A DNA stretch of 32,403 nt from a virus. Taxonomy: Duplodnaviria > Heunggongvirae > Uroviricota > Caudoviricetes. Under the pieces are notes generated by a model, which searched no databases, was not told the origin of the DNA, and worked only from the letters and a program-made list of their open reading frames with translations. Both the position numbers and the translations under genes were made by a program. The DNA lies in IMG/VR virus record IMGVR_UViG_2617270968_000008, positions 1 to 32,403 of that record, one strand, 5' to 3'. Below, in pieces: positions 16,696 to 16,937 of the stretch (its first letter is position 1; the number at the start of each line of letters is the position of its first letter).

Positions 16696-16745
16696 GCGTT
16701 GTTAGCTCAGCCGGACAGAGCAATTGCCTTCTAAGCAGCTGTGGT
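16696..16745 (+). pseudogene. argO: Truncated tRNA-Arg (anticodon UCU) fragment
   Basis: Acceptor 5' strand, D-arm and anticodon arm (loop CTTCTAA) resemble argU, but no T-arm or complementary 3' acceptor strand follows; looks like a rearrangement breakpoint. Confidence 0.4.
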
Positions 16746-16937
16746 TGCACTCCTGTTGTTTCTGGTGGTGATGGTGGACTTCAGCAGCCGGATAATGTCG
16801 GTGCTGTCTGATGGTGTTTTGGTGGCGGGTGTGTGGTTGTTGCTTTCCCGTTGCTGAAAAAGAAAGCATCAGGCGATTAGCAGGGTATCAGTTACACGTT
16901 GAAATTTTTAAATACCTCACAATTCCACAGCTTGATG

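Follow-up and report, generated by a model that had tools for sequence, protein, structure and literature searches.

An argO tRNA stump in a lambdoid prophage of Escherichia coli as the probable relic of a 654-bp deletion in a non-toxin cargo module

The last tRNA gene in the late region of the prophage analyzed here breaks off after 42 nt, and this argO stump is very probably the inert relic of one blunt, illegitimate deletion of 654 bp in a non-toxin cargo module, an allele that has since spread. Genes on both sides of the junction are truncated: argO, a gene for tRNA-Arg(UCU), has lost its 3' part, and the gene that follows, encoding a DUF3927 protein (tciB), has lost its start. The closest un-deleted counterpart that we identified, in a prophage of E. 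coli ABU 83972 (NC_017631.1, 1184000-1191500), is separated from our DNA at this point by a single 654-bp segment, so that a simple deletion accounts for both truncations.

The window, by which we mean the entire 32,403-nt stretch of IMG/VR record IMGVR_UViG_2617270968_000008, is a lambdoid prophage and matches the chromosome of E. coli DA33133 (NZ_CP029574.1; human faeces, Sweden) at 100% identity. It begins with integrase/excisionase genes, followed in order by dicB/DicF, cI/cro-like genes, hokD/sok and RusA, then by the genes listed in Table 1. Located 3' of the tRNAs are small RNAs, iraM, a SASA (nanS-p-type) esterase gene, and the lysis, terminase and head genes. Matches at the Rfam gathering level were obtained for DicF (4774-4825, minus strand), for sok (10474-10649, plus strand), which adjoins hokD, and for IS009 RNA (30828-31026, plus strand), the last lying within the major capsid protein gene (30456-31484). 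The iraM gene (17629-17964), annotated by PGAP as an anti-adapter of the RpoS stabiliser family, is located on the minus strand, antisense to the late operon, after the STnc100 copies and before the esterase; inspection of counterpart loci in ABU 83972, O157 and JLK-2012 revealed no such gene. In the stretch that separates the lysis genes from the terminase genes (22252-23881), PGAP also annotates two convergent, overlapping genes, one for a "sce7726 family protein" and one for a "beta family protein", and, in the early region, a SMEK-domain protein (8307-9206) and a class I SAM methyltransferase with a hypothetical gene (9521-10882), on the minus strand. These accessory genes may be moron or defence cargo.

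Table 1. Features of the late region around the argO junction, in window coordinates.
Feature	Position	Strand	Basis and remarks
Q	14025-14846		
DNA methyltransferase	15421-16470		After Q, before the tRNAs
ileZ-type tRNA, anticodon CAU (Ile2/Met-type)	16520-16595	+	Intact, CCA encoded; ARAGORN; Rfam tRNA, 72.5 bits; PGAP tRNA-Ile
argN-type tRNA-Arg(UCG)	16605-16681	+	ARAGORN; Rfam, 44.9 bits, with non-canonical pair flags
argO tRNA-Arg(UCU) 5' remnant, 42 nt	16696-16737	+	Homology to intact argO; not called by ARAGORN, Rfam or PGAP
Deletion junction GCA/GCTG	16737/16738		Blunt; 654 bp absent relative to ABU 83972
DUF3927 (tciB) remnant	16738-16880	+	Alignment with intact genes; Pfam PF13064; PGAP
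STnc100/PasD-family sRNA gene, copy 1	16946-17139	+	Rfam RF02076, 138 bits
Degenerate STnc100 copy	17175-17350		Between the two full copies; sub-threshold, 30 bits
STnc100/PasD-family sRNA gene, copy 2	17415-17603	+	Rfam RF02076, 132.5 bits

ARAGORN predicted only two tRNAs in the whole window, with anticodons CAU and UCG, and the RefSeq/PGAP annotation of the identical genome likewise lists one tRNA-Ile and one tRNA-Arg and nothing more. Both genes had originally been taken to fold canonically. This holds for ileZ, but the argN allele of the window has an A3.C70 mismatch in the acceptor stem and a G53.U61 pair instead of the near-universal G53-C61, as judged from the Rfam alignment and by comparison with the Stx-phage allele. 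Elsewhere argN is unrecognisable in related phages or is annotated as "tRNA-OTHER". Because argN is not fully canonical here, and is represented at other junction-bearing loci by cleaner alleles or by fully degenerate ones, we conclude that erosion of the tRNA cluster is general among non-Stx prophages. The ileZ-argN-argO cluster was reportedly first described for 933W; literature searches returned nothing relevant on ileZ, argN or argO, or on tciA or tciB.

Following argN, the stump comprises the acceptor 5' strand, the D arm, the 5' strand of the anticodon stem, the loop CUUCUAA and 3 nt of the 3' strand. The intact argO genes of mEp460_ev081 and ABU 83972 agree with it at all 42 positions and that of Stx2a_F765 at 41 of 42, a level of agreement that reflects homology and not chance. 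Truncation after the anticodon arm, as the original prediction had proposed, is thus confirmed. The missing nt 43-77 of argO correspond to part of the 3' strand of the anticodon stem, the variable loop, the T arm, the acceptor 3' strand and CCA. No hidden T arm emerged when ARAGORN thresholds were stepped from 90 to 60%, which yielded no tRNA in 16650-16850, and a search of 16400-17400 with the Rfam tRNA model (RF00005, E<=10) returned the same two tRNAs and no match in 16696-16800. As a positive control, ARAGORN recovered the intact argO of a control locus. A complete tRNA-Arg(UCU) fold, with a 7-bp acceptor stem, T arm and T-loop, discriminator base and CCA, was accordingly found by neither predictor; only homology to the 5' half of argO was present. 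The predicted RNA fold of 16696-16780 formed no cloverleaf, and its free energy of -21.2 kcal/mol was no lower than that of shuffled sequences, which averaged -25.5 (z = +1.5).

Since tRNA genes are frequent targets of integration, the stump might be viewed as half of a tRNA gene split by a mobile element, that is, as an att remnant, or else as a non-canonical but functional tRNA-like RNA, given that its anticodon stem-loop is nearly intact and that four of the five stem pairs can be formed, reading from the sequence, with the new 3' bases. The 3' half of argO, however, was not found anywhere in the 32-kb window at up to 3 mismatches, so the tRNA was not split by insertion. No duplicated or displaced tRNA 3' segment occurs in the window, and neither an integrase gene nor a repeat flanks the junction, at which the break in argO abuts the truncated DUF3927 gene. 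Integration normally retains the 5' part of the tRNA gene and completes it with a newly supplied 3' part, of which the window shows no sign, and a tRNA-like RNA is at odds with both the rejection by predictors at relaxed thresholds and the unexceptional fold. We give almost no credence to this reading in either form.

The sequence beyond the stump had been described as GT-rich filler beginning at about position 16745. Alignment with Stx phages and other loci places the break exactly at 16737/16738, and what follows is a Val/Leu/Gly-rich coding remnant with a Pfam match to PF13064. From 16738 onward, the window matches tciB of phage JLK-2012 and the RefSeq "DUF3927 family protein", entering at codon 7; codons 1-6 are absent, as is the terB-coupled GTG start. 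A 1-nt deletion near 16830-16836 shifts the reading frame, leading to a stop at 16855-16857. The resulting 38-aa ORF (16741-16857), which begins with a GTG 4 nt after the junction, scores 42.6 bits against PF13064, above the cutoff of 25, but covers only positions 11-39 of the 53 in the profile. Intact homologues are 54-55 aa long and cover positions 2-50, and their start codon overlaps the stop of the upstream gene, a TerB family member by Pfam; the ORF in the window is neither full-length nor provided with such a start. PGAP and RefSeq nevertheless label this truncated, frameshifted remnant an intact 38-aa protein, WP_000226111.1. Among the 33 sequences with the junction that were examined, a set that takes in the window and the record from which it derives (L005), 29 have the frameshift, and the other four keep the DUF3927 frame unshifted. 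This distribution suggests that the frameshift came later than the 654-bp deletion, which fits progressive decay.

The breakpoint is the same against 8 comparator loci, with homology on the left stopping at 16737 and homology on the right beginning at 16738 (1-3 nt off in two blastn rows). The parental ends read AAGCA/ATCGG on the left and GTCTG/GCTGT on the right, and the window reads AAGCA/GCTGT. Comparison of the deletion ends with three candidate parents revealed no microhomology, so that the blunt junction carries no such signature of mechanism. The T arm of argO (CTGGTTCGAATCC) does resemble codons 8-12 of DUF3927 (TGGTTGCACTCC), but by chance, and this resemblance does not explain the join since it lies 4-5 nt to the right of it.

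The module of ABU 83972 runs in the order Q, methylase, ileZ, argN, argO, terB, DUF3927 and esterase. Its identity with the window is 95.9% over the 3.1 kb that precede the junction (13634-16737), a region spanning RusA, Q, the methylase, ileZ, argN and the 5' part of argO. It then contains 654 bp that the window lacks, namely argO nt 43-77, a GC-rich hairpin with a T-run, the whole of terB (tciA) and the first six codons of DUF3927, and homology to the window restarts exactly at 16738. Gene order to the right of the junction is as in the window, except that the window has a duplicated STnc100 region together with iraM, which was not seen in the ABU 83972 locus. A chimeric-query search showed the first ~190 nt of the right flank to be ~97% identical, and identity over 16738-17593 is 78%; given this divergence beyond ~190 nt, ABU 83972 ranks as a close counterpart rather than as the actual parent. 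The intact order of ileZ, argN, argO, terminator hairpin, terB and DUF3927 is also found in non-Stx prophages of O157:H7 ATCC 43888, O111 14614 and OkiPb01709, and in OkiPb01709 the same methylase as in the window lies upstream of the intact module. In most of these intact arrangements an esterase follows.

A structure of this kind could also have arisen by the illegitimate joining of two co-resident prophages, one contributing ileZ-argN-argO and the other tciA-tciB situated behind different tRNAs. JLK-2012, which has tRNA-Asn/Thr/Gly upstream, would resemble such a donor, since it matches the right flank at 83.9% over 16738-17084, whereas O157 ATCC 43888 matches at just 80.6%, and over 16739-16865 only. 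A blunt junction fits either route, and the two are formally indistinguishable. ABU 83972, however, carries both flanks in cis, the left at 96% and the first ~190 nt of the right at ~97% identity, so no second partner is needed. We regard a two-prophage origin as unlikely; it would produce the identical structure and leave the conclusion, a dead tRNA stump, unchanged.

The original prediction interpreted the break as a recombination junction within the last tRNA gene, at which the stx cargo of related phages had been exchanged. A rearrangement junction is indeed present in that gene. Homology to Stx phages, seen in more than 240 records, ends exactly at 16737, and in Stx2 phages stx occupies the slot downstream of argO. 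In Stx2a_F765, argO shares its position with the stump, 3' of Q and the DNA methylase and after ileZ/argN, and differs at one of the first 42 nt, while the window copy lacks nt 43-77 and is not recognised as a tRNA. Neither flank of the junction, however, contains stx-derived sequence; on the right is the DUF3927 gene without its 5' end, and in the same backbone the complete gene stands, together with terB, behind an intact argO. The 654-bp deletion accounts for both truncations in one step. In addition, Stx2a_F765 and the terB-type loci remain alignable for ~48 nt beyond the CCA end of argO, through the hairpin GGCTCGCTTTTGCGGGCC-TTTTTT to TATCTGCGCC, before diverging into stx2A or terB, and similarity of Stx2a_F765 to the window restarts at an STnc100-like element just after stxB. 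From these alignments, the exchangeable slot extends from the argO terminator to the STnc100 element, with terB-DUF3927 as the alternative occupant. The truncation of argO represents a later deletion inside a terB-type module and not the point of exchange. A swap of stx for other cargo inside argO, largely refuted by the ABU 83972 comparison, is thus very unlikely.

The repeat units noted downstream in the original prediction are indeed repeated, and they can be identified as genes of the STnc100 family of sRNAs, two full copies and one degenerate. Both full copies score above the Rfam gathering threshold of 47 and cover model positions 1-206. A 2026 preprint links STnc100 to the prophage PasD sRNAs and describes STnc100 matches as frequent at distances of up to 10 kb from Pas sRNA genes, near which TerB and esterase genes are commonly found (bioRxiv 10.64898/2026.05.13.724894). 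One STnc100 unit, the segment 17134-17402, is absent from five related loci (L013, L017, L033, L037 and L039), as expected from unequal crossover between STnc100 copies. The terminator-like hairpin at the end of the degenerate copy (17320-17347; GGCTCGCTCCGGCGGGCC plus a T-run) shares 96% identity with the one found behind intact argO in the O111 locus (L008, 1823-1850). As far as the two sequences indicate, a terminator cassette has been reused within the module.

The junction allele is widely distributed. A 60-nt query centred on the junction was matched across it in 325 of 5426 complete E. coli genomes, and a 201-nt junction query detected 314. The exact 23-nt junction sequence, GCCTTCTAAGCA/GCTGTGGTTGC, occurs in 29 IMG/VR contigs, in the E. 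albertii type strain (NBRC 107761 prophage) among GTDB species representatives, and in four GenBank phages, vB_EcoS-640R1, vB_EcoS-733R4, vB_EcoS-716R1 and vB_EcoS-813R8. In the vB_EcoS phages, the E. albertii prophage and the IMG/VR contigs, the junction is exact and the surrounding module is more than 95% identical to that of the window. Some junction-bearing relatives differ in lacking the methylase segment, one STnc100 unit or the esterase, or in having a degenerate argN; the junction is found behind at least three distinct argN alleles, one of them degenerate. The methyltransferase segment (14953-16480) and the esterase segment (18445-19938) show clean presence or absence among junction-bearing loci of more than 95% identity, both being missing, for example, from L004, L011, L015 and L037.

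The deletion that we favor would have begun with an ancestral late region in the order Q, DNA methylase, ileZ, argN, argO, hairpin, terB (tciA), DUF3927 (tciB), STnc100, nanS-p esterase and lysis genes. A single blunt, illegitimate event would have fused nt 42 of argO to codon 7 of DUF3927, removing the variable loop, T arm, 3' acceptor strand and CCA of the tRNA, the terminator hairpin, the complete terB gene and the beginning of DUF3927, and the frameshift would then have degraded the DUF3927 remnant further. The deleted allele is probably old, with phage recombination and inheritance having brought it into many Escherichia prophages, and the stump would simply be co-transcribed as a passenger in the Q-dependent (Q-antiterminated) late transcript. 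RNase P, the CCA-end enzymes and ArgRS require the acceptor/T-arm helix, and we infer that a stump unable to form this helix is inert.

With the deletion, the prophage lost its own tRNA-Arg(UCU) as well as TerB. AGA and AGG together make up 10.6 of every 1000 codons of the prophage; most of them fall in early and accessory genes, and head genes contain few. As a gauge of the cost of argO loss, this count says little either way. The stump could instead have been kept for a function, as a tRNA-half-like sRNA freed from the Q-dependent late transcript, as a processing or structural element in 3' maturation of the adjacent argN, or as a new 5' leader of the 38-aa DUF3927-derived ORF downstream. 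If so, selection and not hitch-hiking would account for an allele that 6% of complete E. coli genomes carry and that also occurs in E. albertii; we consider this very improbable.

As a dead tRNA stump, the argO remnant is of small biological weight. It is an ordinary relic, such as builds up in prophages that are mosaic and decaying. The analysis nonetheless corrects the boundary between stx and terB cargo, which lies after the argO terminator hairpin and not inside argO, and it shows that annotation pipelines call a truncated, frameshifted DUF3927 remnant intact. The 23-nt junction also provides a clean marker for one lambdoid late-region lineage that has spread through Escherichia.
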